Positions 830-53,871 of a DNA stretch of 64,000 nucleotides are shown here, piece after piece. A program made the translations under genes and the position numbers. Source of the stretch: Gammaproteobacteria bacterium (GTDB lineage Bacteria > Pseudomonadota > Gammaproteobacteria > SZUA-140); contig WFNO01000123.1 in the NCBI GenBank assembly GCA_015488555.1, forward strand, positions 6,627 to 70,626, given 5' to 3'. The notes under the pieces are model-generated. The model searched no databases. It was not told the origin of the DNA and worked only from the letters and a program-made list of their open reading frames with translations. How positions within the stretch are numbered: the stretch's first letter is position 1; each line of letters opens with the position of its first letter.

Positions 830-2804
<1,975 letters not shown>

Positions 2805-3861: not shown

Positions 3862-5622
3862 TCACATGGTTTCGGGGGCGCTGACGCCCAGGATCCTCAG
3901 GCCATTGGCCAGGACTTGTCGTGTAGCGAGTACCAGGGCCAGCCGGGCGTCACGCAAGGCCGCGTGCTCGACGATGAAGGGATGGGCGTTGTAATAGGTA
4001 TGGAAGGCATGCGCCAGTTCCCGCAGGTAGTGGGCGAGCTGGTGGGGCTCGTGGGCGAGGGCGGCGGATTCGATCACTTCCGGATAGCGGGACAAGGTCA
4101 TCAACAGTTCCTGTTCGTGGGGCTCCACCAGTTGCCGGAGATGGGCCAGCCCCTGTTCCTGGTTCCATGTCAGGCCTTTTTCCGCCAACTGGCGCATCAC
4201 GCTGCAAATGCGGGCGTGGGCATATTGAATGTAATAGACTGGATTGTCGCTGGTCTGGGATTTGGCCAGGTCCAGGTCGAAGTCCATGTGCTGTTCGCAC
4301 TTGCGCATCACGTAGAAGAAACGTGCGGCGTCGTTGCCCACTTCCCGGCGCAGCTCGCGCAAGGTGACGAATTGCCCGGCACGGGTGGACATGGGGATCT
4401 TCTGCCCGCCCCGCCAGAGACTGGCGAATTGTACCAGCAACACGTCCAGGCGCTGGGGATCGTCGCCCAGGGCCGCCAGTGCCGCCTTGATCCGCGGCAC
4501 GTAGCCGTGGTGATCGGCACCCCAGATGTCGATGACGCGCTCGAAGCCCCGTTCCATCTTGTCCATGTGATAGGCGATGTCGTGGGCGAAGTAGGTGGCC
4601 TGGCCGTTGTCGCGGATCACCACCCGGTCTTTTTCGTCGCCGAACTGGGTGGAGCGGAACCACCAGGCGCCGTCCCGTTCGTAGAGATAGCCGCCTTGTT
4701 TGAGGCGCTCGATGGCACGGCGGACCAGGCCGCGTTCCACCAGGCTGCGTTCCGAATACCATTCCTCGTAGACGACGCCGAATTCCTCCAGGTCTTCGCG
4801 GATGTCGTCGAGAATGGCCTGCAGCCCGAAGTCGAACACCAGACGGTAGTCCGCCTCGCCCAGCAGGGTCCGGGTCCGTTCGATGAGCGCGTCGATGTGG
4901 CGTTCCTTGTCGCCGCCGTCGGGCTCGTCGGACGGCAGGCCGGATGCGACCTCATGGGCGGGGCGGCGCAGGCGTTCGCCATGGAGTTCGTACAGGGCCG
5001 TGGCGATGTCGATGACGTACTGACCCTGATAGCCATTGGCGGGAAAAGGCAGCTGTTCGCCGCAGCGTTGCAGGTAGCGTAACCACAGGCTCACGGCCAG
5101 GATGTCCATCTGCCGGCCGGCGTCGTTGACGTAGTATTCGCGGTGGACCTGGTAGCCGACGGCCACCAGTAGGTTTGCCACTGCGGCCCCGTAGGCGGCC
5201 CCACGCCCGTGGCCGACATGTAGCGGCCCGGTAGGATTGGCGGAGACGAATTCCACTTGTACCCGCCGCCCGTGGCCGAGTGTGCTGCGGCCATAGGCCT
5301 CGCCGGCCTCCAGGATGTCGCGCGCCACTTGGTGATAGGCCTCGGGAGCGAGATGGAAGTTGATGAAGCCCGGGCCCGCCACCTCCACCCGGGCGATGGC
5401 CGGTGCAGCCGGCAGGGCGGCGGTGATGCGCTCGGCCAGTTCGCGGGGTTTCTTGCCAGCCTGGCGGGCCAGCACGAGGGCGATGTTGCAGGCGAAGTCC
5501 CCGTGGCGGCGGTCGCGGGTCCGTTCGATCTGGATCTCCACGGCCAGATCGGGGCGCAATTCACCGCTGTCCTGGAGTTTCGCCAGGGCCTGGGCCACCA
5601 GGTTTTCGAGTGCTTGTTTCAT
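3862..5622 (-). CDS. argS: Arginine--tRNA ligase
   Basis: 586 aa; [16 protein letters not shown] (HIGH region) and a C-terminal anticodon-binding domain. Confidence 0.97.
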
Positions 5623-39209: not shown

Positions 39210-40496
39210 ATGATCTCGGTCTGTGATCACTACGCTCCCACGCAACACAATCTGCGCCGCATCGCCGGCTTACGTGCCATTGCGACGGTGGTAATGGTTG
39301 TGCTCATCGTGCTCACACAGGCTTGGTTGGAATTGTCTCTGCCGTTGCTGCCGCTGGCGCTGATCCTCGTCACCCAGGGTGTTTGGGCCCTGTTCACTTG
39401 GTGGCGTTCTCGACGCTTGCAACCGATTTCCGACCTCGAGTTTTTCCTGCAGCTCACCAGCGATGTTTTGATTTTCAGTGCTGTGCTCTATTTCACGGGC
39501 GGCGCTACCAATCCTTTCGCTTGGTTCTATCTACTGCCTCTGATGATTGCCGCTACCGTGTTGCCGCCGGCTTACGTGTGGGGCATGGCGGGATTGACCG
39601 TGGTTTGCTATTCCCTGTTGATGATTTTTTATGTGCCTTTGCCATCTGCCATTGGCCAATTGACCCCCATGCAACACGACAGTGGTTTTTCCCGCCACGT
39701 CTTTGGTATGTGGTTTGGTTTCGTGCTTAGTGCTGTGCTGGTGTCTCATTTCGTTACCCGCATGGCACGTACCTTACGCCAACGTGACCGGATATTGGCC
39801 GAGGCCCGGGAACAAGTCTTGCGTGACGAGCGCTTGGTAGCCCTGGGTACTTTAGCCGCTGGTGCCGCCCACGAACTGGGCACGCCGCTGGGCACCATGG
39901 CCCTGGTCATCGATGAACTTCTGGACGAGTATTCATCTGAGTGCGATGCTGAGCTGCGCGAGCAGCTCCGATTACTACGTGAGCAAGTGGACCGCAGCAA
40001 ACAGGCGCTGTCAGTGATCTCTGCATCTGCCGGGCAACAGCGAGCCGATGCAGGTCAGTCGCGTCCTGCCGATCAGTATCTGAGGGAGCTTGTCCAGCGA
40101 TGGCGCGTGAGACGACCGGGTATCGAATTTCGCGAACGTCTGGATGGACCAGAGCCAGCTCCTCCGCTGCTTGCCGATCGAGCCCTCGAACAGGCTCTGG
40201 CCAACATCCTCGACAACGCTGCCGATGCCTCGCCGGAGAAGGTCGAGCTGCGTGCTACGTGGTCGACTCAATCATTGGAGATCCAGGTCCTCGATCGCGG
40301 TCCTGGTCTCAGCGAAGGCGCTGCCAGTGCGGCGGGTAAGACTCCCTTCAGCAGCAAAGAACAGGGCCTTGGCGTCGGCTTGTTTCTCGCTCATGCTGTG
40401 ATCGAGCGTCTCGGTGGCGAGGTTATCCACCGTCAGCGCGAACACGGCGGTACCTGTACTTGTATTCGTTTGCCCCTGATTGGAGTTCGCCCATGA
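39210..40496 (+). CDS. regB: Redox-sensing histidine kinase RegB/PrrB/RoxS family
   Basis: Six TM helices containing the RegB quinone-site heptapeptide GGxxNPF (TGGATNPF). H-box AAGAAHELGTPLGTM; N and G boxes LDNAADAS and DRGPGL. Confidence 0.88.
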   Translation: MISVCDHYAPTQHNLRRIAGLRAIATVVMVVLIVLTQAWLELSLPLLPLALILVTQGVWALFTWWRSRRLQPISDLEFFLQLTSDVLIFSAVLYFTGGATNPFAWFYLLPLMIAATVLPPAYVWGMAGLTVVCYSLLMIFYVPLPSAIGQLTPMQHDSGFSRHVFGMWFGFVLSAVLVSHFVTRMARTLRQRDRILAEAREQVLRDERLVALGTLAAGAAHELGTPLGTMALVIDELLDEYSSECDAELREQLRLLREQVDRSKQALSVISASAGQQRADAGQSRPADQYLRELVQRWRVRRPGIEFRERLDGPEPAPPLLADRALEQALANILDNAADASPEKVELRATWSTQSLEIQVLDRGPGLSEGAASAAGKTPFSSKEQGLGVGLFLAHAVIERLGGEVIHRQREHGGTCTCIRLPLIGVRP

Positions 40497-41044
40497 CTAG
40501 CAACACGGATACCGTTCACCCTACCTTGCTGTTGGTGGACGATGATCTCACGTTTTGTCGCGTGTTGGGCAGAGCACTGGAGAAACGCGGTTTCGAGACA
40601 TACATCGCCACCGACCTACATGGTGCTCTGGAACTAGCCGGCGATCACAATCCAGAATACGCCGTCATCGATCTGCGCCTCGGTAACGAATCCGGTCTGG
40701 AGGTGGTCAAACAACTCAAGGCCATGGGTAGCAATGTCCGTATGGTTATTCTCACCGGTTACGCCAGCATTGCCACCGCCGTCGAGGCCATCAAGCTGGG
40801 TGCTACCCACTATCTCACCAAGCCTGCGAGTGCGGACGAAATCATCTGTGCCTTGGGGCGTGATTCCGGAGACACTGGGGTTACGCCAGCAGAGAACCCG
40901 CTGTCGATCAAGCGCCTGGAATGGGAGTACCTGCAAAAGGTGCTATTGGAGAACAACGGCAATATTTCTGCTACTGCCCGTGCGCTGGGTATGCACCGAC
41001 GAACTTTGCAACGCAAGCTGGCCAAGAAGCCCGTGCGAAGCTGA
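40493..41044 (+). CDS. regA: Response regulator RegA/PrrA/ActR/RoxR family
   Basis: REC domain LLLVDDD...VIDLRL...TKP plus the near-invariant Fis-type HTH NGNISATARALGMHRRTLQRKL. ATGA overlap with regB. Confidence 0.9.
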   Translation: MTSNTDTVHPTLLLVDDDLTFCRVLGRALEKRGFETYIATDLHGALELAGDHNPEYAVIDLRLGNESGLEVVKQLKAMGSNVRMVILTGYASIATAVEAIKLGATHYLTKPASADEIICALGRDSGDTGVTPAENPLSIKRLEWEYLQKVLLENNGNISATARALGMHRRTLQRKLAKKPVRS

Positions 41045-42057: not shown

Positions 42058-42205
42058 TAGCAGGTTGTTGAAATTCTACTCACGCGGCGCGACCCGGTGT
42101 TGAAAATGGCCTCGAAATTCTCATTTGCCTAGTTTGTAAACTGCGCTTTCTCGGCCATTTCTGCCTTGTCTCGCGCTCGCCTGAGCGAATTTCAACAGCC
42201 TGCTA
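42058..42205 (+). repeat. MITE-like palindromic element, copy A (148 bp)
   Basis: 19-bp terminal inverted repeats TAGCAGGTTGTTGAAATTC / GAATTTCAACAGCCTGCTA. The internal arms are also self-complementary (GAAAATGGCCTCGAAA vs TTTCTCGGCCATTTC). About 85% identical to copy B. Confidence 0.8.
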
Positions 42206-42535: not shown

Positions 42536-43087
42536 ATGATGGTGAAAGTGTTGATTCCCTTGGCTCAAGGTTGTGAGGAACTCGAGGCTGTGACCGTGAT
42601 CGATCTCTTGCGCCGAGCAAGAATCGAGGTGGTTACCGCTGGCCTGGACGGTGAGCCGGTACGTGCCAGCCGTGGAACGGTATTAGTCCCCGATACCACC
42701 CTCGATGCCGCCATGGAGGACGACTACGACATGGTGGTATTACCGGGTGGATTGCCCGGCGCGGATTATCTGGATCAGGATCCGCGGATCCTGGCCATCC
42801 TCAAGCGCACTGTGGCGGCGGGCCGATACGCCGCAGCCATTTGCGCTGCTCCCAAGGTGCTCGCCCATGCTGGACTTCTCAACGGGCGTCGGGCCACCAG
42901 TTATCCCGGCGTGCTGGATGCCATGAACCTGTCTGACGTGGAAGTCACCGGCGAGGCAGTGGTGGTGGACGGTAAGGTGATCACTTCACGCAGCCCTGGA
43001 ACCGCCGTGGATTTCGCCCTCACGCTCATCGAATGCCTGGTCGGGCGTAATATTCGACGAGAAGTAGAAGAGGCACTGGTTCGATGA
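42536..43087 (+). CDS. DJ-1/PfpI family protein (YajL/ThiJ-like)
   Basis: 183 aa from the ATG after GGGGAGGAAGG. MMVKVLIPLAQGCEELEAVTVIDLLRRA...AAICAAPKVLAHAGLL (nucleophile-elbow Cys) ...VITSRSPGTAVDFAL. Confidence 0.88.
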   Translation: MMVKVLIPLAQGCEELEAVTVIDLLRRARIEVVTAGLDGEPVRASRGTVLVPDTTLDAAMEDDYDMVVLPGGLPGADYLDQDPRILAILKRTVAAGRYAAAICAAPKVLAHAGLLNGRRATSYPGVLDAMNLSDVEVTGEAVVVDGKVITSRSPGTAVDFALTLIECLVGRNIRREVEEALVR

Positions 43088-43286
43088 AATGAAGGAATGG
43101 ATTCGCATGGGGACGCGGATTGTACCTGCCGGCATTTTCTTGATTCTGTCGCAGGCGCGGGGTTTCTCTACCACGTTCTCGCAAAGAGGGGTAACGAATC
43201 CTTTCAGAAGGAGGGGTATGTGGGCGGTGTTTTTTGACCCTTGTCCTTTGAGTCTATCTCCAGATTGAGGAAGAAGGAGGGAGTAT

Positions 43287-43314
43287 TTTGAACCGTGGGG
43301 TTTGTGCGGGCGAC
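43287..43314 (+). promoter_or_regulatory. Candidate ECF-sigma promoter P1
   Basis: TTTGAACCGT-N13-GCGAC. GAAC is separated by 17 nt from CGAC. All 15 specified positions and the spacing are identical to P2 at 49624-49651. Confidence 0.55.
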
Positions 43315-43378
43315 AGATGACCGAAAGCAGCCGTTTGCCAACATGAACAAGCGAATCAAGGTAAGGAAATCGAAGAGC

Positions 43379-45337
43379 ATGGTTGCGCTCCGCAGACCGA
43401 ATTGCAATTTTTGCTATCGATGTCAGATGATTCTTCTGGTGTTCTTTTTCCATCGATCAGCCTGGAGTGCGCCGGCTTTGCTGCCCGCGGCGGAAGGTTT
43501 CTGGGCACCGGATGCCACCCTGCGTATCGAGGCCGGCGCACTGGCCGGCGCTGGCCCGCATCGCCGCGCGGTGGAACTGGACGATATAGACGTGACGGCG
43601 CTATTGACAGTGGAAGGAAGTGAGCTGGTGCTGCGTCCAGCACAGCCTTTGGCCCCTGGTTGGCACCGATTACGCCTGGTGGAATACACCGACGATGGAG
43701 AGATCATCGAGCGCGGTTTCTGGCGTTTCGAAGTGCGTCATTCCCGCTTGTGGCGCGAGCGCCAGGCAGCGGTACAAGCAGGGTTCTCACTCGCCCGGCG
43801 CCTGAGCAAGGACACGGTCGCAGACACTCCCCGACACGCCCTCGAGGGCACGGCGCGTATGGACGGCATGGCTGACAGCGGCGTCTGGAGCTTGCGCGGC
43901 GAGACGGATTTGGTCTATCAACCCCGTGATGCATTGCGTTCTGAGGCCATGGCGCCGCTAGATGCCACTGCCTTTGCTATCGCTGCGGCGCGGGGCCCCT
44001 GGCGCATCTCAGCCGGCCAGCAGACGCCGCTGTCCTCCGGTCTAATCGTGGAAGAGAGATTCTTGCGCCGCGGTCTGAGCATCGGCTTGGAGCGCCCGGA
44101 ACGGGGCACCCGGATTACCGCCTTTGCCCTGCGCAGCCAGGAGGTGGTGGGGCTTTCCGCAGGCATTGTGCCCGGCGATGTCTCCGACCGGCTCGTTGGG
44201 TTGGCCATGGCCGCTCGCCCCCTGGCCGGGCGACGTGAGGACTTGCAGTTCAGCGTCACGTGGCTTCAGGGGCGCGATCCTGGGATGGTGGGCGAGGGGG
44301 TGGGGGGAGATCCTGATTTGACTGCCAGTGGCCGTGCGCTTTCTCTGACCGTCGATGCCTTTTTGTGGCAGCGCCGTTTGCGCCTGTGGGGTGAATGGGC
44401 CGGCAGCCGTTACGATTACGATGGCGCGGGACCACTCGCAGCCGAAACGTCGCAGGCCCATACCTTCTGGGCCGGTTACACGCCGACACGACCCTTGCGC
44501 CTGGGGAAGGTTCGGGTGAATTGGGAGGCCGGACTGGAATGGCGCAGCCTGGGTAGTTTCTTCCGCAGTCTGGCCAATCCCGCTGCTGGTGCCGATCGGG
44601 CGGGATGGCGTGGTTTCGTTGCTGCCGCCTGGGATGGTTTCGATCTGCGCTTCGATGCTGGCCGGGAGCACGATAATGTGGACAGCCTACCCGGCCTGCC
44701 GCGCATCGCCATCGAACGCTGGAACATGGCTCTGAGTTGGTCTCCTGTTCAATGGCAGCCGCCCGTATGGCTGGGCCTGCCACGTTTGGAATTGGAGGTT
44801 CAGCGGAGCGGGCAGAGAGTGGAGCGCGATGGTGGCGGTTTGGATGCGGGTGCACTGCGGCGGACCCAGACGATCACCTTCTCGGCAGGTTTCGATTACG
44901 AGCGTGGCCGCTGGTCCGTTGCCCATACTCTGGCCCGGGACGAGGACCTCGGCCAAGGGGGCGAGAGTGAAAGTAGCGCCAGCGAACTGAACCTGGCGCT
45001 GCGGCTCTGGGAAGTCCTGGACGTCGATCTTGCGTTTCAGCGAGAGCGTTACGATGACAATGGCGACGTGACTACAACGAACGTGGCTGAGCTGAACCTT
45101 TCACAACAACTCACGCCCCGACTCGTGTTGCAATTCGGTTACAGCCGGGAACATCAGTCGAGTATGTGGATGCAGAGCCGCGTCTCGTCTGCCCAAACCC
45201 AGCTCCAGTGGTGGCCGCGAGAGGGTGTCGCCATTTCACTGGAAGGTAGCGACAACCGCTATGTGGCGGATTTCGAACAGCGTGAGCAGCAGGTTTTCCT
45301 GCGCCTCGATCTGACATGGTCCCGGGAGAAATCGTGA
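43379..45337 (+). CDS. Large predicted outer-membrane beta-barrel protein with N-terminal Ig-like domain (unknown family)
   Basis: About 652 aa. Signal-like MVALRR...LLVFFFHRSAWSAP, then a beta-sandwich-like segment (VTALLTVEGSELVLRPAQPLAPGWHRLRLV). About 550 aa of short amphipathic strands follow, rich in W/Y/R/D. Start is uncertain (ATGs at 43343, 43379, 43427); the tracked GTG at 43295 lies inside P1. Confidence 0.6.
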   Translation: MVALRRPNCNFCYRCQMILLVFFFHRSAWSAPALLPAAEGFWAPDATLRIEAGALAGAGPHRRAVELDDIDVTALLTVEGSELVLRPAQPLAPGWHRLRLVEYTDDGEIIERGFWRFEVRHSRLWRERQAAVQAGFSLARRLSKDTVADTPRHALEGTARMDGMADSGVWSLRGETDLVYQPRDALRSEAMAPLDATAFAIAAARGPWRISAGQQTPLSSGLIVEERFLRRGLSIGLERPERGTRITAFALRSQEVVGLSAGIVPGDVSDRLVGLAMAARPLAGRREDLQFSVTWLQGRDPGMVGEGVGGDPDLTASGRALSLTVDAFLWQRRLRLWGEWAGSRYDYDGAGPLAAETSQAHTFWAGYTPTRPLRLGKVRVNWEAGLEWRSLGSFFRSLANPAAGADRAGWRGFVAAAWDGFDLRFDAGREHDNVDSLPGLPRIAIERWNMALSWSPVQWQPPVWLGLPRLELEVQRSGQRVERDGGGLDAGALRRTQTITFSAGFDYERGRWSVAHTLARDEDLGQGGESESSASELNLALRLWEVLDVDLAFQRERYDDNGDVTTTNVAELNLSQQLTPRLVLQFGYSREHQSSMWMQSRVSSAQTQLQWWPREGVAISLEGSDNRYVADFEQREQQVFLRLDLTWSREKS

Positions 45338-46440
45338 TGAAAGCGATTCGATGGATGGGTCTGCTTTTCTTTTCGTTTATTACCACTGTTCAGGCAGCCA
45401 TCGTCTCGGTCGGTGTGACACCAGGAAACGCTGCCGTGCCAGTGGGCCAGACCACCTCGGTGAGTCTGCGCTGGACGGTGGAGCGCAGTGCCAGCCCGCC
45501 AGGCCGCGTTCGAGCTGGGGAAGACGTCTTCTCCGAGCGAGGAGAGTTTTACGACGACACTGGCCGGTTGCTGGGACGAGTGGAGCAGCGCCTGCTGCAG
45601 ACGCGTCCCGTCTCCCCCGGCGATACCTTCACTTTTCGCGAAACCGTGCGCGTTCCCGCCACGCTGCTCTATCGGGCCCACAAGGCAGGGGTGAGGCTTA
45701 TCTATTATCAGCGCACCTTCGATGACGGCTACGGCACTCAAAGCGCATCCACCGAGATGCGCCTTACCAGCGCGGCGGCGGCCGGGTTCAATCTTTCCCG
45801 GCTGGCCTTGAGCTTCGAGGGCGGCTGGCTCCACCGGGTGGTGGCACCTGGGGAAGCGCTGCGTCCCCGCGCGGTGGTGAGTTTCTCCGGCAGTGGCCAG
45901 TTCCGCGCCACTTGGGAGGTGGCGGAACCAGCTACTACCCGCGGCGAACCGGTATTTCGGCCATTGCGGAGTGTGCGTCGTTATCTCACTGGCGGTGGTG
46001 AGGCCTCCATCGAGGGACCAGTGCTGCCTACCCGTAGCCAGGGGACCTATCTGCTGCGGCTGCGCATCGATGCCCCCGAGGTGGGTTTCGTGCTGCCGTC
46101 CTTGCGTTACGTGGTGGCGCCCGTCGAACGGGCGCTGCCGCTACTGACAGTGCGATCGCCGCTACCAGGCGCTACGCTCACGCCGAAGACCCGTTTCCAG
46201 TGGTCGCCGGTGGACGAGGCGCGTGCCTATCAGGTGGAGATCCGTGCCACCGAATCGGTAGAGGGGCCACCGCTCACAGGTCTGGTGGCGACGGCAGAAC
46301 GACAAGATGTTACCCTGCCTCTCCATACCCGAGAGCGGCTCAAGCCTGGGCGTTACTACTGGCGCTTGTTGGCCATCGGTCCGCAGGGAGAGACGCTGGC
46401 AGCCAGTGTCCCGCGCGAGTTGCGGGTCCTCGCCCCATGA
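45337..46440 (+). CDS. Secreted all-beta (Ig/FnIII-like repeats) protein, unknown function
   Basis: Signal peptide MKAIRWMGLLFFSFITTVQA. Three repeated about-100-aa beta-rich segments. The start overlaps the upstream stop (TGATG). Confidence 0.6.
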   Translation: MKAIRWMGLLFFSFITTVQAAIVSVGVTPGNAAVPVGQTTSVSLRWTVERSASPPGRVRAGEDVFSERGEFYDDTGRLLGRVEQRLLQTRPVSPGDTFTFRETVRVPATLLYRAHKAGVRLIYYQRTFDDGYGTQSASTEMRLTSAAAAGFNLSRLALSFEGGWLHRVVAPGEALRPRAVVSFSGSGQFRATWEVAEPATTRGEPVFRPLRSVRRYLTGGGEASIEGPVLPTRSQGTYLLRLRIDAPEVGFVLPSLRYVVAPVERALPLLTVRSPLPGATLTPKTRFQWSPVDEARAYQVEIRATESVEGPPLTGLVATAERQDVTLPLHTRERLKPGRYYWRLLAIGPQGETLAASVPRELRVLAP

Positions 46441-47003
46441 ATGGCGAGACGGCCGAAGCATTGCTGGCGCGCATCGCCCGCGGCGACCGCAAGGCGTTGG
46501 AGCGGTTCTACCGTGATCATCACAATCGCGTCTATGCCTTCATCCTCCAGCGCGTGGGAGAGCCGGTGGTGGCTGCAGAGGTGCTCAACGACGTGATGCT
46601 GGCCGTGTGGCGCCAGGCGGCGCAGTTTCAGGGGCGTTCCAAGGCCCTGACCTGGGTGCTGGGCATTGCCCACTACAAGGCCACGGATGCTTTGCGACGG
46701 CGCGGTCGTGATGCGGTGCTCACCGACTTGGACGATGTCCCGGAACCCAGCGACGAGGCCGACGCGGCCACGGCCCTGGCGGCGATGGACGACGGCGAGC
46801 TATTGCGTCTGTGTCTAGGCAAGCTTTCGGAGGCACACCGGGTGGTGGTCCATCTCACCTTCTTCGAGGACTTGGCCTACCCCGAGATCGCCGAAATTCT
46901 GGCTTGCCCCGTAGGCACGGTGAAGACCCGTATGATGCACGCCAAACGGGCCCTCAAACGCTGTCTGGAACGGGCGGGGAAATGGCATGAACCACTTTCG
47001 TGA
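46437..47003 (+). CDS. ECF (sigma-70 family group 4) RNA polymerase sigma factor
   Basis: 188 aa. Region 2 FYRDHHNRVYAFILQRVGEPVVAAEVLNDVMLAVW; region 4 LSEAHRVVVHLTFFEDLAYPEIAEILACPVGTVKTRMMHAKRAL. ATGA overlap with the upstream gene. Confidence 0.92.
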   Translation: MNGETAEALLARIARGDRKALERFYRDHHNRVYAFILQRVGEPVVAAEVLNDVMLAVWRQAAQFQGRSKALTWVLGIAHYKATDALRRRGRDAVLTDLDDVPEPSDEADAATALAAMDDGELLRLCLGKLSEAHRVVVHLTFFEDLAYPEIAEILACPVGTVKTRMMHAKRALKRCLERAGKWHEPLS

Positions 47004-47045
47004 CGGCAGCGACCCACTGATGAAGCATGAAGAGGTGGTTGAGCC

Positions 47046-47651
47046 ATGAATGAGCCCCAAGACCACGACTACGTCGAAGCCCTGCTTTCCTGGTACGTCA
47101 ACGGTACCCTGACGGAAGAAGAGCGGGCCCAGGTGACGGCACATCTGGAACATTGCGGCAGGTGTCGTGAGGAAGTCCGGTTCCTCACCGGACTGCAGCA
47201 GGGGATCAAACGTGTTGCCGACACCTCCGTAGACCCCGAATTGGGGCTGAAGCGCTTGATGCGCGAGATCGACGCCGAGACTCCCGCTCGCCGCCGCACG
47301 CCTTGGTGGCAACCCTCGCTGGCGGCCGCTGCCGTGGTGATCCTCGTTCAGGGGGTGTTGCTGTTCAATCTCTGGCAGCGGGACGACGACATCGGCGTGC
47401 GTTTGGCGGGAGAAGCGCCACCGGCGGAGGCGGTGATATTGCAGATCCAATTCGATGCCGATGCCCGTGAAGAGGAGATTCGCGCCCTACTGCGCGCGCT
47501 GGATGCACGTTTCGTCGATGGTCCCAGCGCGGTGGGCCTTTATCGCATCGAACTCTCCGGTGTCACGCCCGGGGATGAACGGGCCCTGGCCCGTGCCCTG
47601 AACACCTTGCGCGAGCAACGAGAGATCGTCCGTCATGTGGCGGTCGAGTGA
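47046..47651 (+). CDS. Zinc-binding (ZAS-type) transmembrane anti-sigma factor
   Basis: N-terminal HLEHCGRCREE (HxxxCxxC), one TM helix (WWQPSLAAAAVVILVQGVLLFNLW), about 95-aa extracytoplasmic domain. Lies immediately after the ECF sigma. Confidence 0.85.
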   Translation: MNEPQDHDYVEALLSWYVNGTLTEEERAQVTAHLEHCGRCREEVRFLTGLQQGIKRVADTSVDPELGLKRLMREIDAETPARRRTPWWQPSLAAAAVVILVQGVLLFNLWQRDDDIGVRLAGEAPPAEAVILQIQFDADAREEEIRALLRALDARFVDGPSAVGLYRIELSGVTPGDERALARALNTLREQREIVRHVAVE

Positions 47652-49356
47652 TCGCCATCGCTTGCTGGCATCGATCCTTGTGCTGGTCACTGCCCCGCTC
47701 ATGGCGCAGGAAAGAGATTTCCCCTTGCGCGCAGCGCAACGAGCACTGCCCGACCTACACATCCCAGTCCTGGAATTGGATGGCCACTGCCGGGTGCGGT
47801 TCACCCTGGAAAACGAAGGTCCCGGCCATCTGCCGGAGACAGCCTATCGCAGCGTTTCGGTATGGCTTTCGGTGGGCCGGGATCGCCACCGTCTCGCTCT
47901 TGGCGAGATCGACCCGCGGCAGGCGCTGCGCGCTCCAGGCGGGCGTATCGCGTATACCAGCGAATTAACCGTGGACGGCGAGCGGCGGGTGATCCTGATC
48001 ATCAGTGCCGACAGGCGCTTCAAAGAGGCCGACGAGAACGACAACCGCCGTGCCGCAACCTTGCGTTGTGCACCGCGAGACCGGCAGATCGAAGACGACC
48101 GGAGCGCTGGCCGGCAAGTAGACACGCCGGCTCCGGTCCCTGCATCCGAGCAGGAGGCCGCGCCCGTGGACGAGTCGCCGGCAAGCCCTATCGATGAACC
48201 ATTGCCACTGCGCCTTCCTTTCGCCGGTGGCAGCGTCCTCGATGCTCCCTTGCCCCCGCCACCAGAAGAATTGCCACCTCTGCCGGAGGGCGACGATCCC
48301 ACCGTGGAACCCGGAGAGGTGATGGTGCTTTCTGAAGACATGGCCGCCGCCCGCGCCTTGGCGGCGCGGACGCGCGACAGTGGTCTGCGCATCCTCCGGC
48401 GCAAACGGCTTTCCAGCCTCGGCTGGGTAGTGAGCGTCTTTCGAATCCCCCCTGAGACCAGCGTTGCCGAGGCCATCGAGCGATTACGCCGGCAGCTCCC
48501 GCCCAAGCAACGCAGCCTGGTGGAGGCCAACCACCGCTATCGCCTCCAGGGCAAATCTCCTGATCCACGCCGTTATGGACCGCGCCTGCTGGGCTGGCAG
48601 ACCACGCCTGATTGCGGCAAGGGGATGCGTCTGGGATTGGTGGATACGGCCATCGACCGTGATCATCCCGACCTGGCTTCGGCCGATATCCACACCCGCC
48701 GCATCGTCACCACCGGCGTGCTTCCAGCGCCTCCCGATCATGGCACAGCCATTGCCGCCCAATTGTTGGCCGATCCTGCAACCGGCGGGGTGGCAGGCCT
48801 GCTGCCTGGCGCCCGCCTCTACGCGGCCGAGGCCTTCCGCTGGCGCGACGATGTCGCCGAAACCACCAGCGAATGGTTGATTGCCGCCCTGGACTGGCTG
48901 GCGGGCGAGCAGGTGGTAGTAGTCAATCTCAGCTTCGCCGGACCGCGCAATCTGCTGGTGGAACGGGTGATCGAACGCTTGCATCGCCTGGGTATCCAGG
49001 TGGCAGCCGCTGCCGGCAACGAAGGCCCCGGCGCGCCGCCGCGCTATCCTGCTGCCCAGCCGGAAGTGGTAGCCGTCACCGCTGTCGATGCCGACGGTCG
49101 TCCCTGGCGTCGTGCCGCCACCGGTCCCCACATCGATTTCGCCGCCCCCGGCGTCGATCTCTGGAGCGCCCGTCCCGGCGGTGCCCACGCCTATCTGAGC
49201 GGCACTTCCTATGCCGTTCCTTTCGTCAGCGCCGCCCTCGCACTCGAAAGAGAGGCCTCCCTGCGCCGCCGGGCGCGGGACCTGGGTGACCCGGGGCGCG
49301 ACCACCGCTTCGGCTGGGGATTGATTCAGACACCCGGCTGCTCCCGCTCTGGGTAG
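47635..49356 (+). CDS. Secreted S8 (subtilisin-like) serine peptidase with N-terminal CARDB-like domain
   Basis: Signal peptide MWRSSDRHRLLASILVLVTAPLMA. CARDB-like segment ends in EADENDNR; Pro/Glu-rich linker. Triad contexts: GLVDTAIDRDHPDL, DHGTAIAAQL, SGTSYAVPFVSAA. The ATG lies 17 nt inside the anti-sigma gene. Confidence 0.88.
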   Translation: MWRSSDRHRLLASILVLVTAPLMAQERDFPLRAAQRALPDLHIPVLELDGHCRVRFTLENEGPGHLPETAYRSVSVWLSVGRDRHRLALGEIDPRQALRAPGGRIAYTSELTVDGERRVILIISADRRFKEADENDNRRAATLRCAPRDRQIEDDRSAGRQVDTPAPVPASEQEAAPVDESPASPIDEPLPLRLPFAGGSVLDAPLPPPPEELPPLPEGDDPTVEPGEVMVLSEDMAAARALAARTRDSGLRILRRKRLSSLGWVVSVFRIPPETSVAEAIERLRRQLPPKQRSLVEANHRYRLQGKSPDPRRYGPRLLGWQTTPDCGKGMRLGLVDTAIDRDHPDLASADIHTRRIVTTGVLPAPPDHGTAIAAQLLADPATGGVAGLLPGARLYAAEAFRWRDDVAETTSEWLIAALDWLAGEQVVVVNLSFAGPRNLLVERVIERLHRLGIQVAAAAGNEGPGAPPRYPAAQPEVVAVTAVDADGRPWRRAATGPHIDFAAPGVDLWSARPGGAHAYLSGTSYAVPFVSAALALEREASLRRRARDLGDPGRDHRFGWGLIQTPGCSRSG

Positions 49357-49623
49357 CTTATCCCGCGCCTCGGCGAAAGCTCCAGAGGGATGAGCGGAAA
49401 CAGTGGAGGGTGGGGCAACTCCACCCACAGGCCACAGGCCGGGCTCTTGGCATTCGCCGCGCGCCACGCCCTGTTGTGCATCGATACCCATTCGAACCGG
49501 CGCAATTTCGGCAACAAATCCAGGTTGAAAATTGACAACCCTGTTCCGCCACACCCGGTGGTAGGGGTGAAGCACGAGCAAATCGGCAATCGACTAGACC
49601 TGTAGACCGGCAGCCGAAATCCG

Positions 49624-49651
49624 TTTGAACCGTACGCGCAATCCCCGCGAC
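49624..49651 (+). promoter_or_regulatory. Candidate ECF-sigma promoter P2
   Basis: TTTGAACCGT-N13-GCGAC, 68 nt upstream of the ATG at 49719. Same motif and spacing as P1. Confidence 0.55.
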
Positions 49652-49718
49652 CCATTTCCCGAGGGAGCCGGACGGGCCGGCTTCCACCAAACTGATCTCA
49701 ATAAAAAAGGAGCACATC

Positions 49719-50057
49719 ATGCACAAGAAACGTTCCATCGTGACAAACGGCCTTTTCATCATCTTCACCCTGGCTCTCGGTGCGATCATCGGCCTGCCGG
49801 CACTGGCCGTGGCCGATAATGGGGCCAGAAATGCCATGTTTCCAAACAAGAACATGGGTATGACCATCCAGAACAGGCCACCCAAGTGCGCCAGAGGATT
49901 CAAGGCGGTAAACATTCAACCAAAACACAAAGGCGGCCATAACTATCTCTGTGTCAGTGAAAGACCGGTGTGCAGTACGGGCCACCAACTTGGCTGGCAG
50001 CAGTTCAACGCAAGCAAAAACCGTTTCGAATACGCGTGCTATCACCCCGAGGGATGA
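49719..50057 (+). CDS. Small secreted Cys-containing protein, unknown function
   Basis: 112 aa, strong SD AAGGAG 6 nt before the ATG, signal peptide ...GLPALAVA, four Cys in the mature part. Lower-GC patch. The overlapping 185-aa minus-strand ORF was rejected. Confidence 0.6.
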   Translation: MHKKRSIVTNGLFIIFTLALGAIIGLPALAVADNGARNAMFPNKNMGMTIQNRPPKCARGFKAVNIQPKHKGGHNYLCVSERPVCSTGHQLGWQQFNASKNRFEYACYHPEG

Positions 50058-50139
50058 GAGAGCCAAACGGATGGCGGGGCCCGTCATCACGGGCTCCCGC
50101 CGCATCCAAGGCCCAACAGCAATCACAAGGAGACCTTCC

Positions 50140-51867
50140 ATGAACCCCCGAGCCATGAAAATTCACTTCACCGGCGCCACCGTGCTGCTGACGTCGCTCG
50201 CTCTTTCCGCCTGCGGCGGTGGTAGCGGCAGTAGCCTCCAGCAGGCCTCGCAGAGCCTGCCCGAGGCCCCCGAACTGAGTCTGGACTATAGCCCGGTCAA
50301 GACCTTTCGCTTCACCTGGTCCGATGTGGCGGGTGAGACGGAATACCGCCTGCTGGAAGACCCCGACGGCATCTCCGGCTATACCGTGGTCGCCAGCCTG
50401 GCGGCGGACAGCACCGGCTATGACCTCGAGGTCTTCCTGCCAGGGCGCATCAACGCCCGCTACTTGCTCCAGGCCTGCAACGATGCCGGCTGCTCCGACT
50501 CCGATGAAGTGATGGTGGACGTGCCGGCCATGACCGCTGCCATCGGTTATGTCAAGGCTTCCAACCCTGATAGCAATGACTTTTTCGGTGTGGCCATGGC
50601 CTTGTCCGCCGATGGCCGCACCCTGGCCGTGGGCGCGACCGGTGAAGACAGCGACGGCAGCACCGAGGCCGACAATTCCCTATCGAGTGCCGGCGCGGTC
50701 TATGTGTACGTCCTCGACGGCGACACATGGATACAACAGGCCTATCTCAAGGCCTCCAATGCCGATGAGTTTGACTGGTTTGGTCACGCCGTGGCGCTGT
50801 CCGCCAATGGCAATACCCTGGCCGTGGGAGCCAGGGGGGAAGATGGTGGCGGCAGTAACGCCGGCGCAGTGTATGTGTTCAATCGCAATGGCGGCGTCTG
50901 GATCCAGAAGGCCTACGTCAAGGCTTCCAACACCGGCCAGCATGATATGTTTGGTGATGCCATAGCACTTTCTGCCGACGGCCGCACCCTGGCCGTGGGC
51001 GCGCCTCGGGAAGACAGCGATGGCAGCAGTGAGGCTGATAATTCGGCTCTCGATGCCGGCGCGGTCTATGTGTACGTCCTCGATGGCGACACATGGACAC
51101 AACAGGCCTATCTCAAGGCCTCCAATGCCGATGGGTTTGACTGGTTTGGTAGCGCCGTGGCGCTGTCCGCCAGCGGCGATACCCTGGCCGTTGGGGCCTA
51201 CTCTGAGGACGGTAATGGTAGTGACGCCGGAGACAACTCGCTCCCGGATGCCGGAGCAGTGTATGTATTCGATCGCGATGGTAACGCCTGGAGCCAGCAG
51301 GCCTATGTCAAGGCTTCCAACGCCGGTGAGGATGACCAGTTTGGTCGCGCTGTGGCGCTGTCCGCCGACGGCCGCACTCTGGCCGTGGGAGCGCCCTGGG
51401 AAGGCAGCGACGGCAGCAGTGAGGCCGACAACTCCCTCCCAGGTGCCGGTGCGGTCTATCTCTACCGCTTCGATGGGCAGAGCTGGAGCCAGGAGGCCTA
51501 TCTCAAAGCCTCCAACCCCAAGGAGTTCGACGTGTTCGGCTCTACCGTTGCCCTGTCCGCCGACGGCGATATTCTGGTCGTGGGCGCCTTCGGGGAAGGC
51601 AGCACCGCCACCGGCCTCGGTGGCGATGCCTTGGACGACAACGCCGATGAGGCCGGCGCAGTCTATCTCTATCGCTACGACGGCGGTACCTGGGGGCAAC
51701 GAGCCTATGTCAAGGCCAGCAACACCGACGCTGGAGATGTATTTGGCAGGCTGGCACTGTCCGCCGACGGCCACACCCTGGCCGTGGGCGCACCTTGGGA
51801 GGACAGCGATGGCAGCAGTGAGGCCGACAATTCGGTTCTCGATGCTGGTGCGGTCTACCTCTACTGA
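50140..51867 (+). CDS. Lipoprotein with FnIII-like domain and about 8 FG-GAP/integrin-alpha-type beta-propeller repeats
   Basis: SD AAGGAG. Lipobox LTSLALSAC followed by GGGSGSS. Repeating unit KASN..x..D.FG.AVALSADG.TLAVGA..ED......DNS...AGAVYVY....W.QQAYL. Confidence 0.8.
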   Translation: MNPRAMKIHFTGATVLLTSLALSACGGGSGSSLQQASQSLPEAPELSLDYSPVKTFRFTWSDVAGETEYRLLEDPDGISGYTVVASLAADSTGYDLEVFLPGRINARYLLQACNDAGCSDSDEVMVDVPAMTAAIGYVKASNPDSNDFFGVAMALSADGRTLAVGATGEDSDGSTEADNSLSSAGAVYVYVLDGDTWIQQAYLKASNADEFDWFGHAVALSANGNTLAVGARGEDGGGSNAGAVYVFNRNGGVWIQKAYVKASNTGQHDMFGDAIALSADGRTLAVGAPREDSDGSSEADNSALDAGAVYVYVLDGDTWTQQAYLKASNADGFDWFGSAVALSASGDTLAVGAYSEDGNGSDAGDNSLPDAGAVYVFDRDGNAWSQQAYVKASNAGEDDQFGRAVALSADGRTLAVGAPWEGSDGSSEADNSLPGAGAVYLYRFDGQSWSQEAYLKASNPKEFDVFGSTVALSADGDILVVGAFGEGSTATGLGGDALDDNADEAGAVYLYRYDGGTWGQRAYVKASNTDAGDVFGRLALSADGHTLAVGAPWEDSDGSSEADNSVLDAGAVYLY

Positions 51868-51909
51868 AACCGCGGGCAGGAGAGCGGCGTAACAAGTCCC
51901 CAGGGACAT

Positions 51910-51941
51910 GGAACCGGCAACGAGTTTGAGCTGCCGGTTCC
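51910..51941 (+). terminator. Hairpin terminator after the FG-GAP lipoprotein gene
   Basis: GGAACCGGCA-N12-TGCCGGTTCC: perfect 10-bp stem followed by ATCTCTTTC (a weak U tract). Confidence 0.55.
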
Positions 51942-52092
51942 ATCTCTTTCGATCTGGGAATCCAGTGTGGGAATCGCTTATCGTCACGGCTCGCGGGACA
52001 TGCGATGGATTGACGGCGTTCATCTATTCACGGCCGGGATGAAGAGCGAGTCCCTCGTCCTCTTTATGCCAGGTGAAGGAGGATCCTGACCC

Positions 52093-52227
52093 GGGCTGTT
52101 GAAATTCGACTCACGCGGCGTGATCCGGTGTTGAAAATGGCCTCGAAATGTTCATTTATTGACTGTGCTTTCTCGGCCATTTTCGCCTCGTCTCGCATTC
52201 GCCCGATCGAATTTCGACTGCCTGCTA
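52093..52227 (+). repeat. MITE-like palindromic element, copy B (about 135 bp)
   Basis: Same orientation as copy A and about 85% identical, with one 8-bp indel. The left terminus is degenerate. Its last 3 nt (CTA) are the complement of the ubiB TAG stop codon. Confidence 0.8.
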
Positions 52228-53871
52228 AGGCCGGGCGGCGTAGAAGAATGCCACCGCCAGTGCGGCGAGGATCCAGCTCACCAGGGGAATGCCGCCCAGG
52301 AGCATGCCCAGGGTATCACCCAGGCCGGCGGTGACGGCGGCGCTGATGAGCAGGGCGCCGCCGACGATGGCGCCGTAATTGCGCCGCTGGCTGCGGGTGA
52401 TCTCTTCCCGAATGGCTTCCAGTTCCTGGGGGGGCGCCCGCGTCTTCAGGCGTCCTTGGCGCAACTGTTCCAGCACTTCGTACGCCAGCAAGGGTGCGTG
52501 CGGCATCTTCTCCATCACTTCCGGGCTGGTGCGGCGCAGGGTCTTGAGAAAGGCGCGCGGGCCGATGTGATCCTGCATCCAGCGTTCCAGAAAGGGCTTG
52601 GCGGTGCGCCACAGATCCAGGTCCGGATAGAGCTGGCGCCCCAGGCCCTCGATGTTGAGCAAGGTCTTTTGCAACAGCAGCAACTGGGGCTGTACTTCCA
52701 TGTTGAAACGCCGCACGGTCTGGAACAGGCGCAGCAACAGGCGGCCGAAGGAGATTTCCTTCAGCGGGCGCTCGAAGATGGGCTCGCACACGGTGCGGAT
52801 GGCCGATTCGAATTCGTCGATACGGGTGCCTTCGGGGACCCAGCCCGACTGGATGTGCAGTTCCGCCACGCGGTGATAGTCGCGGTTGAAGAAGGCCAGG
52901 AAGTTCTCCGCGAGATAGCGCTGGTCCTCGGGGCTCAAGGTGCCCATGATGCCGAAGTCCACGGCGATGTACTGGCCCGCGGGGGAGACGAAGATGTTGC
53001 CGGGGTGCATGTCGGCGTGGAAGAAATTGTGGCGGAACACCTGGGTGAAAAAGATCTCCACGCCGCGCTCCGAGAGTTTCTCCAGGTCGATGCCGGCGGC
53101 CTGCAAGGCCTCGACGTCGTTCACTGGGATGCCGGAGATCCGTTCCATGACCATGACCCGGCGGCGCGTGTAGGGCCAGTACACCTCCGGCACGTAGAGC
53201 AGGTCCGAGCCGCTGAAATTGCGCCGCAACTGGGAGGCGTTGGCGGCCTCGCGCACCAGGTCCAGCTCGTCGAGGATGGTCTTTTCGTATTCGGCGATCA
53301 CTTCACGAGGGCGCAGGCGGCGGCCTTCCTTCCAGTAGCGTTCCGCCAGCTCGGCGAGGATGTAGAGCAATCCCACGTCGCGTTTGATGATCTCTTCGAT
53401 CCCGGGGCGCACCACCTTGACGATCACCTCGCGGCCGTCGCGCAGGCGGGCGGGGTGCACCTGGGCGATGGAGGCGGAGGCGATGGGGGTCTCGTCGAAA
53501 GCGGCGAACATCTCGGTCACCGGCCGGCCCAGGGTCTGTTCCACGATGCGGCGGGCCTCGGAGCCGGGGAAGGGACTGACGCTGTCCTGCAGCTTGGCCA
53601 GTTCGTCGGCGATGTCGTCCGGCAGCAGATCGCGGCGGGTGGAGAGGATCTGCCCGAACTTGACGTAGATGGGGCCCAATTCCTCCAGGGTGCGGCGGAT
53701 GCGCACCGCGCGCGGATCCCGCGGGCGCCGGAACCAATTCCACGGCAACAGGTAGAGCAGGAAGCGGAAGGGACGGAACAGATGGGTGGCGAAGACGACC
53801 TCGTCCAGGCCGTTCTTGACCAGGATGCGGTTGATGTTCAACAGGCGCAGGGCCTGCTGGATCTGGATCAC
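52225..53871 (-). CDS. ubiB: Ubiquinone biosynthesis regulatory protein kinase UbiB
   Basis: 548 aa; LGPIYVKFGQILSTRRDLLP, ASIAQVH, HADMHPGNIF, two C-terminal TM helices. GTG start overlaps the ubiJ stop (GTGA). Confidence 0.95.
   Translation of the reverse strand: MIQIQQALRLLNINRILVKNGLDEVVFATHLFRPFRFLLYLLPWNWFRRPRDPRAVRIRRTLEELGPIYVKFGQILSTRRDLLPDDIADELAKLQDSVSPFPGSEARRIVEQTLGRPVTEMFAAFDETPIASASIAQVHPARLRDGREVIVKVVRPGIEEIIKRDVGLLYILAELAERYWKEGRRLRPREVIAEYEKTILDELDLVREAANASQLRRNFSGSDLLYVPEVYWPYTRRRVMVMERISGIPVNDVEALQAAGIDLEKLSERGVEIFFTQVFRHNFFHADMHPGNIFVSPAGQYIAVDFGIMGTLSPEDQRYLAENFLAFFNRDYHRVAELHIQSGWVPEGTRIDEFESAIRTVCEPIFERPLKEISFGRLLLRLFQTVRRFNMEVQPQLLLLQKTLLNIEGLGRQLYPDLDLWRTAKPFLERWMQDHIGPRAFLKTLRRTSPEVMEKMPHAPLLAYEVLEQLRQGRLKTRAPPQELEAIREEITRSQRRNYGAIVGGALLISAAVTAGLGDTLGMLLGGIPLVSWILAALAVAFFYAARP

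Follow-up and report, generated by a model that had tools for sequence, protein, structure and literature searches.

A two-block motif with ECF promoter architecture recurs in a sigma factor, anti-sigma factor and S8 subtilase module and probably serves its autoregulation

A short two-block motif stands upstream of both transcription units of a gene module in a gammaproteobacterial genome, and it is most probably a promoter read by the ECF sigma factor encoded within that same module (46437-47003), which would thereby autoregulate its own expression and control a local regulon of secreted proteins. Based on sequence comparison, we estimate the probability of this reading at roughly 0.87. The sites exist, many genomes conserve them in position, orientation and sequence, and they are found almost exclusively in the module. 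The whole stretch of DNA analysed, referred to as the window, consists of 64,000 nucleotides (C123:6627-70626) from an assembly of 2.35 Mb in 132 contigs.

The initial annotation described the motif TTTGAACCGT-N13-GCGAC upstream of two adjacent operons, and it is indeed found on the forward strand, with 0 mismatches, at 43287-43314 and at 49624-49651. The first copy is intergenic, between the end of a DJ-1 gene (43087) and position 43379, and the second lies likewise between the stop codon of the S8 protease gene (49356) and position 49719. The distances to the proposed start codons, 64 and 67 nt, are as had been claimed. An exact search for TGAACCGT-N13-GCGAC in the 2.35 Mb genome returns these two positions alone, and given the base composition only ~ 9e-5 recurrences of a given 15-base pattern are expected by chance per window, in agreement with the recurrence having been considered unlikely to be fortuitous. 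With up to two mismatches allowed, the window contains no copies beyond the 43287 and 49624 sites, and the same search in 100 shuffles gives a mean of 0.12 matches with a single shuffle reaching 2. Genome-wide, three one-mismatch matches are observed, each within a gene or starting at a start codon, and matches to the looser TGAACC-N15-GCGAC are intragenic on contigs C5, C27 and C86 while the one on C115 begins at a start codon. Furthermore, the spacers of the two copies (GGGGTTTGTGCGG and ACGCGCAATCCCC) are dissimilar and their flanks are unrelated as well, which argues for a two-block motif and not for duplicated DNA.

The first unit is an operon of five genes on the forward strand. Gene 1 (43379-45337) encodes a 652 aa outer-membrane beta-barrel candidate with no match in Pfam. 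Its AlphaFold2 model is all-beta, with pLDDT mostly ~ 70-94, for the C-terminal half only, and the leading Foldseek matches in the PDB are all outer-membrane barrels (MtrB, LptD, FimD, porins) at low TM-scores (≤ 0.33); hence the barrel label is supported by the model at the level of the fold class only. An alternative in-frame ATG is present at 43343, and Shine-Dalgarno-like sequences favour 43379. Within the leader (43325-43378), the stretch AACATGAACAAGCGAATCAAG, which contains the ATG at 43343, is conserved as DNA in two homologous loci (L009 and L011); the barrel gene could really begin there and not at 43379. Gene 2 (45337-46440) encodes an exported protein of 367 aa, equally without a Pfam match, and follows the barrel gene in nearly all loci. 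The third gene encodes the ECF sigma factor of 188 aa, recognised by the Pfam families Sigma70_r2, r4_2 and Sigma70_ECF. This protein falls below the cut-offs of all NCBIfam subfamilies, and its closest solved structure is Mycobacterium tuberculosis SigK (4nqw, E 7e-22).

The anti-sigma factor (47046-47651) carries a Pfam zf-HC2 domain, one transmembrane helix and an exported domain of ~ 70 aa. Its AlphaFold2 model (mean pLDDT 84) displays a helical N-terminal domain, a helix at residues 89-115 and an exported domain at residues 130-200 with the order beta-alpha-beta-beta-alpha-beta (pLDDT 93-97). In the model, the topology of this last domain is compatible with a subtilisin prodomain. A Foldseek search with it gave no match at E ≤ 0.001, and the subtilisin-like protease EpiP aligns over 72 columns with an rmsd of ~ 3.5 Å, a score that ACT, RRM and other ferredoxin-like folds equal. 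The fifth gene (47635-49356), the start of which overlaps the end of the anti-sigma gene, encodes an S8 subtilase of 573 aa (Pfam Peptidase_S8).

With regard to the promoter elements themselves, three forward-strand sites can be distinguished, which we call P1, P2 and P3. P1 consists of a -35 element TTGAACC (43288-43294) and a -10 element CGACAGA (43311-43317), the core CGAC of which is found 16 nt from TGAACC as in the family consensus. P3 consists of TTGAACC at 49625-49631 and of CGACCCA at 49648-49654, a motif match that fits this consensus. No third copy had been noticed in the window; a degenerate one, TGAACCAC-N13-GCGAC, does however occur at 46988-47013 and corresponds to P2, TGAACC-N16-CGACCCA (46988-47016). 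All three sites exhibit TTGAACC. Across 45 distinct sites the family consensus is tTGAACCg-N15-CGACnCA, in which G-A-A-C-C is conserved at 96-100% and CGAC at 98-100%, the distance from TGAACC to CGAC being 16 nt in most sites and 17 nt in the remainder. The G immediately following GAACC shows moderate conservation, being found in 60% of sites. The T that comes next and the G in front of CGAC, in contrast, are common to the two original sites and not family-wide. Published ECF promoters have an AAC motif in the -35 block and a -10 block containing CG (PMC5758882), and the sites of the window display the same architecture as had been proposed, that is, a -35 block with AAC and a -10 block starting with CG, 16-17 nt apart. 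No sigma-70-like promoter was found in 42900-52300. Moreover, autoregulation is usual among ECF sigma factors, as is the location of their genes next to those of their regulators and targets (PMC7826278).

A position weight matrix was built from 13 sites of other genomes, leaving the window's own sites out, and was run over both strands of the whole genome (4.7 million positions). P3 (49626, 22.1 bits) ranks first and P1 (43289, 21.9 bits) second, while P2 (46988, 17.3 bits) ranks sixth. Among the other top matches two are tRNA genes, the third-ranked match included. No other match in this whole-genome scan pairs a good -35 with a good -10, and the module thus appears to contain the whole regulon of this genome. 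Specificity was also examined in five other carrier genomes using the exact 13-base core TGAACC-N16-CGACNCA, which is matched 16 times compared to 2 for the reversed control. Ten of the 16 matches are located in the module, and in three of the five genomes every match falls within it. The remaining six of the 16 are without exception intergenic and precede ORFs by 24-65 nt; five of these ORFs have a signal-peptide-like start. Taken from their sequences, the module outputs appear to be exported proteins, among them the four-Cys protein and the FG-GAP lipoprotein described below.

Conservation was followed across homologous loci, designated by L numbers. Nine matches represent close relatives of the barrel protein, and the order barrel, gene 2, sigma, anti-sigma and S8 is observed in every barrel-bearing contig that extends far enough (L008-L018), with TTGAACC-N16/17-CGAC upstream of the barrel gene in L008-L013 and L017. 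Further copies in this first set of loci are located at the boundary between the sigma and anti-sigma genes and ahead of various neighbouring genes, divergent ones included. A locus scan of contigs with the barrel protein alone found nothing; a profile (alignment)-based scan yielded 51 further loci (631 kb), none of which was used for training the matrix. These belong to Gamma-, Beta- and Alphaproteobacteria together with a few Acidobacteria and Bacteroidota bins, and four of them come from named isolates, namely Sedimenticola selenatireducens BK-1, Marinimicrobium alkaliphilum SW121, Pelagibius litoralis DSM 21314 and Pelagibius marinus NBU2595. The five-gene order is found, in full or in part, in ~ 40 of the 51. 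At a threshold of at least 16 bits, the matrix gives 68 matches on the operon strand and 7 on the opposite strand, compared to 0 for the reversed matrix, and five of the seven opposite-strand matches are divergent promoters upstream of the barrel gene. Sites of the P1 type are present upstream of the operon in ~ 22 of the 51 loci, a strong site immediately upstream of the barrel gene being missing in about half of them. A few positions recur: ahead of the barrel gene, within its 3' end some 200 nt from gene 2, behind gene 2 in loci with inserted extra genes, at the boundary of the sigma and anti-sigma genes, and past the S8 gene. The autoregulation and small local regulon that the initial annotation had deduced are thus consistent with a conserved position and orientation, with recurrent targets and with the near-absence of the motif elsewhere in the genomes searched.

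The attribution of these sites to the module's own sigma factor is an argument from co-occurrence, in a genome that has two other ECF-sized sigma genes (contigs C86 and C111), three in total. One of these others, an RpoE-like factor for example, might therefore read the promoters and the module would then be a target without autoregulation, all the more as ECF sigma factors can overlap in promoter recognition (PMC5758882). Nevertheless, genomes that are phylogenetically far apart share the motif together with this very sigma cluster, the exact core of the motif is restricted to the module in three of five other genomes, and the matrix scan finds no comparable site elsewhere in the present genome; we consider control by another sigma factor quite improbable. 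Conserved upstream motifs can also be operators, and a histidine kinase and a response regulator with a Fis-type HTH are encoded 2-4 kb upstream as a RegB/RegA-like two-component system (39210-41044), to which, or to another conventional transcription factor, the sites could belong instead of being sigma promoters. For an operator, however, one has to account for two blocks that are neither direct nor inverted repeats of each other, for their fixed spacing of 16-17 nt, for an orientation that follows the downstream gene (68 versus 7), for their agreement with the -35 (AAC) and -10 (CG) conventions of ECF promoters and for a motif that travels with the sigma/anti-sigma/S8 cluster across classes while the flanking genes differ. 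This makes an operator very unlikely, and we continue with the motif as a promoter of the adjacent ECF sigma factor.

The placement of the putative promoters differs between clades, and in some the best site is internal to the operon and precedes gene 2 or the sigma gene. A strong copy ~ 200 nt ahead of gene 2, within the 3' end of the barrel gene, is seen in L037 (9775), L039 (2000), L015 (11844) and L016 (4420), and similar sites are present in L026, L027, L038, L042, L043, L045, L049 and L056. The Sedimenticola-type loci L015, L016, L037 and L039 have a degenerate site upstream of the barrel gene (GTGAACC ... CGAT), and judging from it their barrel gene may be outside the control of the sigma factor. 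In L030 and L066, matches to the barrel, gene 2 and S8 proteins are observed without a sigma or anti-sigma match between them, and L030 keeps a P1 site of 25.5 bits despite having no sigma match; the sigma factor of these two loci may be encoded elsewhere or lost. In the Pelagibius/Kiloniellaceae loci L047, L050, L051, L053 and L059, ~ 1.2-1.5 kb of extra DNA is present between gene 2 and the sigma gene, with a motif copy directly after gene 2, ahead of the insertion. L008, from genome G001 of the same genus, carries an insertion at 4615-4915 between the P1-type promoter and the barrel gene: an element of ~ 290 bp, bounded by the inverted repeats TTAACCCGGCAACAATATAT ... ATATATTGTTGCCGGGTTAA, which places the promoter ~ 390 nt from the start codon. 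In L009-L011, the motif copies of P1 and of a divergent gene point in opposite directions, their -35 blocks almost in contact (GAACGGTTCAAAAAATTGAACC). Such pairs are located at ~ 185-215 in L009, ~ 3745-3800 in L010, ~ 2700-2770 in L011, ~ 7880-7940 in L019 and ~ 7715-7800 in L025, and from their arrangement they would form a two-way control region for the operon and a divergent exported-protein gene.

P2 extends over the final codons of the sigma gene, leaving 32 nt from the end of its CGAC to the ATG of the anti-sigma gene. It was compared across 32 related loci in which both the sigma and the anti-sigma genes could be placed. Where the gap between the two genes is at least 39 nt, a P2-type site of at least 11.5 bits is observed in 16 of 17 loci and reaches at least 14 bits in 13. 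In contrast, none of the 15 loci with overlapping or adjacent genes (gap ≤ 23 nt) displays one, all scoring below 4 bits. In 10 of the gapped loci the TGA of TGAACC is the stop codon of the sigma gene. The P2 of the window is in a different reading frame and its TGA is not the sigma stop codon, yet the DNA motif is kept, suggesting that selection acts at the level of the DNA rather than the protein. According to its location, the likely effect of P2 is the supply of extra anti-sigma factor and protease once the system fires. In the window itself P2 could be weak or inactive, given that its 17.3 bits are below the scores of P1 and P3 and that it overlaps coding sequence.

The second unit begins 362 nt after the S8 gene and consists of two genes on the forward strand. 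The first (49719-50057) encodes a small exported protein of 112 aa with four cysteines, and the second (50140-51867, with a start at 50140 or 50155) a lipoprotein with the lipobox LSAC and seven Pfam FG-GAP_2 repeats. Relatives of the Cys-rich protein are found in L038, L040, L044 and L046 and share the pattern C-x2-GF ... Y-x-C ... C-x2-G ... Y-x-C. Counting the window's own, all five members of this family are preceded by a motif site that scores 19-24 bits. For the FG-GAP lipoprotein, the relatives are those of L019 and L038; their sites score 24-27 bits, so that this family is found behind the motif in three of three cases. In L038 the Cys-rich and FG-GAP genes have separate promoters and are located upstream of the operon; the gene order thus differs while the motif is kept, and the link between motif and gene survives rearrangement. 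Only these two families recur, since most of the variable motif-linked genes of the other loci show no sequence similarity among themselves. The stretch from the S8 gene to P3 yielded no terminator, hence read-through into the second unit is possible. The unit ends with a terminator-like hairpin at ~ 51908-51951 on the forward strand (12-bp stem, -28.2 kcal/mol, z -4.0, T-rich tail), which a simple terminator scan did not call.

The predicted leader of P3 contains a forward-strand hairpin at 49663-49685 with a 9 bp stem, the loop ACGGG and a folding z of -2.1. From the P3 promoter through this hairpin and the ribosome-binding site to the start region, the DNA is homologous to that of a minus-strand promoter in L010, where a hairpin at ~ 2075-2097 (minus strand) has the same ACGGG loop and CCGG stems, and the hairpin may be a stabilising or regulatory leader structure in both. 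A kinship between the Cys-rich protein and the 263-aa protein of L010 was considered and rejected: the promoters and leaders are homologous and the proteins are without detectable relation. Within the FG-GAP gene (50494-51880), 195-nt repeat units and a two-unit periodicity of 366 nt can be observed, with a copy-to-reference identity of up to 80% for the long families and 87% for a 39-nt unit.

Two MITE-like direct repeats of ~ 140-165 bp, 82-91% identical, are located at 42063-42205 and 52094-52227 and bracket ~ 10 kb that comprises the DJ-1 gene, the five-gene operon and the Cys-rich/FG-GAP unit. Third-position GC in the long ORFs around the module is ~ 0.72-0.75 compared to 0.8-0.9 elsewhere examined, only ORFs of at least 0.72 being counted. 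By these sequence features, the bracketed segment looks like an acquired block. That the motif is a chance resemblance or a functionless remnant of duplicated or mobile DNA is nonetheless hardly credible: the repeats and the lower third-position GC do suggest a mobile history, but the repeats lie away from the motif, the motif is not a scattered repeat family in the genomes searched, only its two blocks are conserved across more than 50 loci while spacers and flanks are unrelated, and the number of recurrences expected by chance is as low as given above.

If the motif is a promoter of the adjacent sigma factor, the circuit can be pictured as follows. In the resting state the membrane anti-sigma factor would hold the sigma factor, which an envelope signal would presumably free, and the co-encoded subtilase may take part in this release. 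By analogy with other ECF sigma factors, region 4 would read the -35 TTGAACC and region 2 the -10 CGAC(n)CA, and transcription is predicted to start ~ 7-9 nt after CGAC, with mapped starts of Sinorhizobium meliloti as a guide. P1 (43288-43317) would then drive the barrel, the secreted protein, the sigma factor, the anti-sigma factor and the S8 subtilase, resulting in positive autoregulation. P2 would drive the anti-sigma factor and the subtilase only, and more inhibitor after firing would amount to a negative feedback. Finally, P3 (49625-49654) would drive the four-Cys exported protein and the FG-GAP lipoprotein up to the hairpin that ends their unit.

A precise regulon is thereby proposed for an envelope module that is apparently unstudied and found in many Proteobacteria. 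The consensus can be used to find the output genes of the module in any carrier genome and to build reporters with which the inducing signal may be found. A farther-reaching and rather doubtful reading is that the module represents an undescribed ECF group, namely a five-gene trans-envelope switch in which a subtilase would control sigma release and a promoter at the sigma stop codon would provide a fixed negative feedback. Its core would comprise the outer-membrane barrel, a secreted beta protein, the sigma factor, a zinc-finger anti-sigma factor with a prodomain-like outer domain and the S8 subtilase.

The type of circuit, an autoregulated ECF sigma factor with a local regulon, is textbook, while the gene module is apparently unstudied. 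An autoregulated ECF sigma factor and a single-pass membrane anti-sigma factor are features of the E. coli sigma-E/RseA/DegS/RseP and P. aeruginosa AlgU/MucA/AlgW systems. By analogy, a periplasmic serine protease would be expected to act in sigma release here too. However, the proteases of those systems are of family S1 (DegS type) and are encoded outside the operon whereas that of the module is of family S8 and encoded within it, and their -10 blocks are unlike the module's. The FecI/FecR/FecA system unites an outer-membrane barrel, an anti-sigma factor and an ECF sigma factor in one locus. The same three are found together in the module, but according to Pfam it has neither a TonB-dependent receptor, nor a plug, nor a FecR domain. 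Compared to ECF group 19 (SigK/RskA), the anti-sigma factor of the module has only zf-HC2 and no RskA domain in Pfam, and its sigma factor scores 118 bits against the 226-bit cut-off of the SigK NCBIfam model.

At the level of the promoter, the -10 of the autoregulatory promoter of B. subtilis sigX is CGAC (Gaballa et al. 2017, PMC5758882). Sigma-X thus offers an autoregulatory ECF promoter with an AAC-containing -35 and the same -10 core, although the organism, the sigma group and the gene context are unrelated and the promoter logic alone is alike. Its -35 is reportedly TGTAAC-like and not TGAACC. Literature searches found no relevant work on TGAACC with ECF promoters, nor anything relevant on a subtilisin-like protease with an anti-sigma factor. 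The main text of Casas-Pastor et al. 2021 makes no mention of an S8-linked ECF group; that publication describes ECF280 with the words "Proteobacteria, broad genetic context conservation", which makes this group a possible home of the module sigma factor.

The closest studied system is RpoE6-EcfR6-SMa0142 of S. meliloti, carried by pSymA and belonging to ECF group 26 (PMC6180224). Both consist of an ECF sigma factor, a single-pass anti-sigma factor and an S8 protease of the same subfamily, the module subtilase and SMa0142 displaying 39% identity over 344 aa (E 1e-60), and both have a small regulon of neighbouring genes. Moreover, the linked S8 protease is under sigma control in ECF26, and here it stands, by sequence, behind the putative promoters P1 and P2. 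The sigma factor has 26% identity to RpoE6 over 142 aa, which is ordinary for any ECF pair, and SigK scores better; BLASTP finds no similarity between EcfR6 and the module anti-sigma factor, the C-terminal domain of EcfR6 having some similarity to RsiW (PMC6180224). The S. meliloti locus has its protease gene in divergent orientation instead of downstream and lacks both the barrel and gene 2. The ECF26 consensus, with -35 GGAATA and -10 GT (PMC6180224), also differs from the TTGAACC and CGACnCA observed here. One RpoE6-dependent promoter, that of SMa0139 on pSymA (L070), reads TTGAATA-N15-CGAC (PMC6180224) and is closer to the module motif than to the ECF26 consensus. In the promoter table of the same study, the mapped starts of the SMa0142 and ecfR6 promoters are 9 nt after the -10 CGTT (PMC6180224). 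Finally, an RpoE6-dependent promoter inside rpoE6 has been proposed to drive ecfR6 (Lang et al. 2018, PMC6180224), and this internal promoter parallels P2 and provides a precedent for it.
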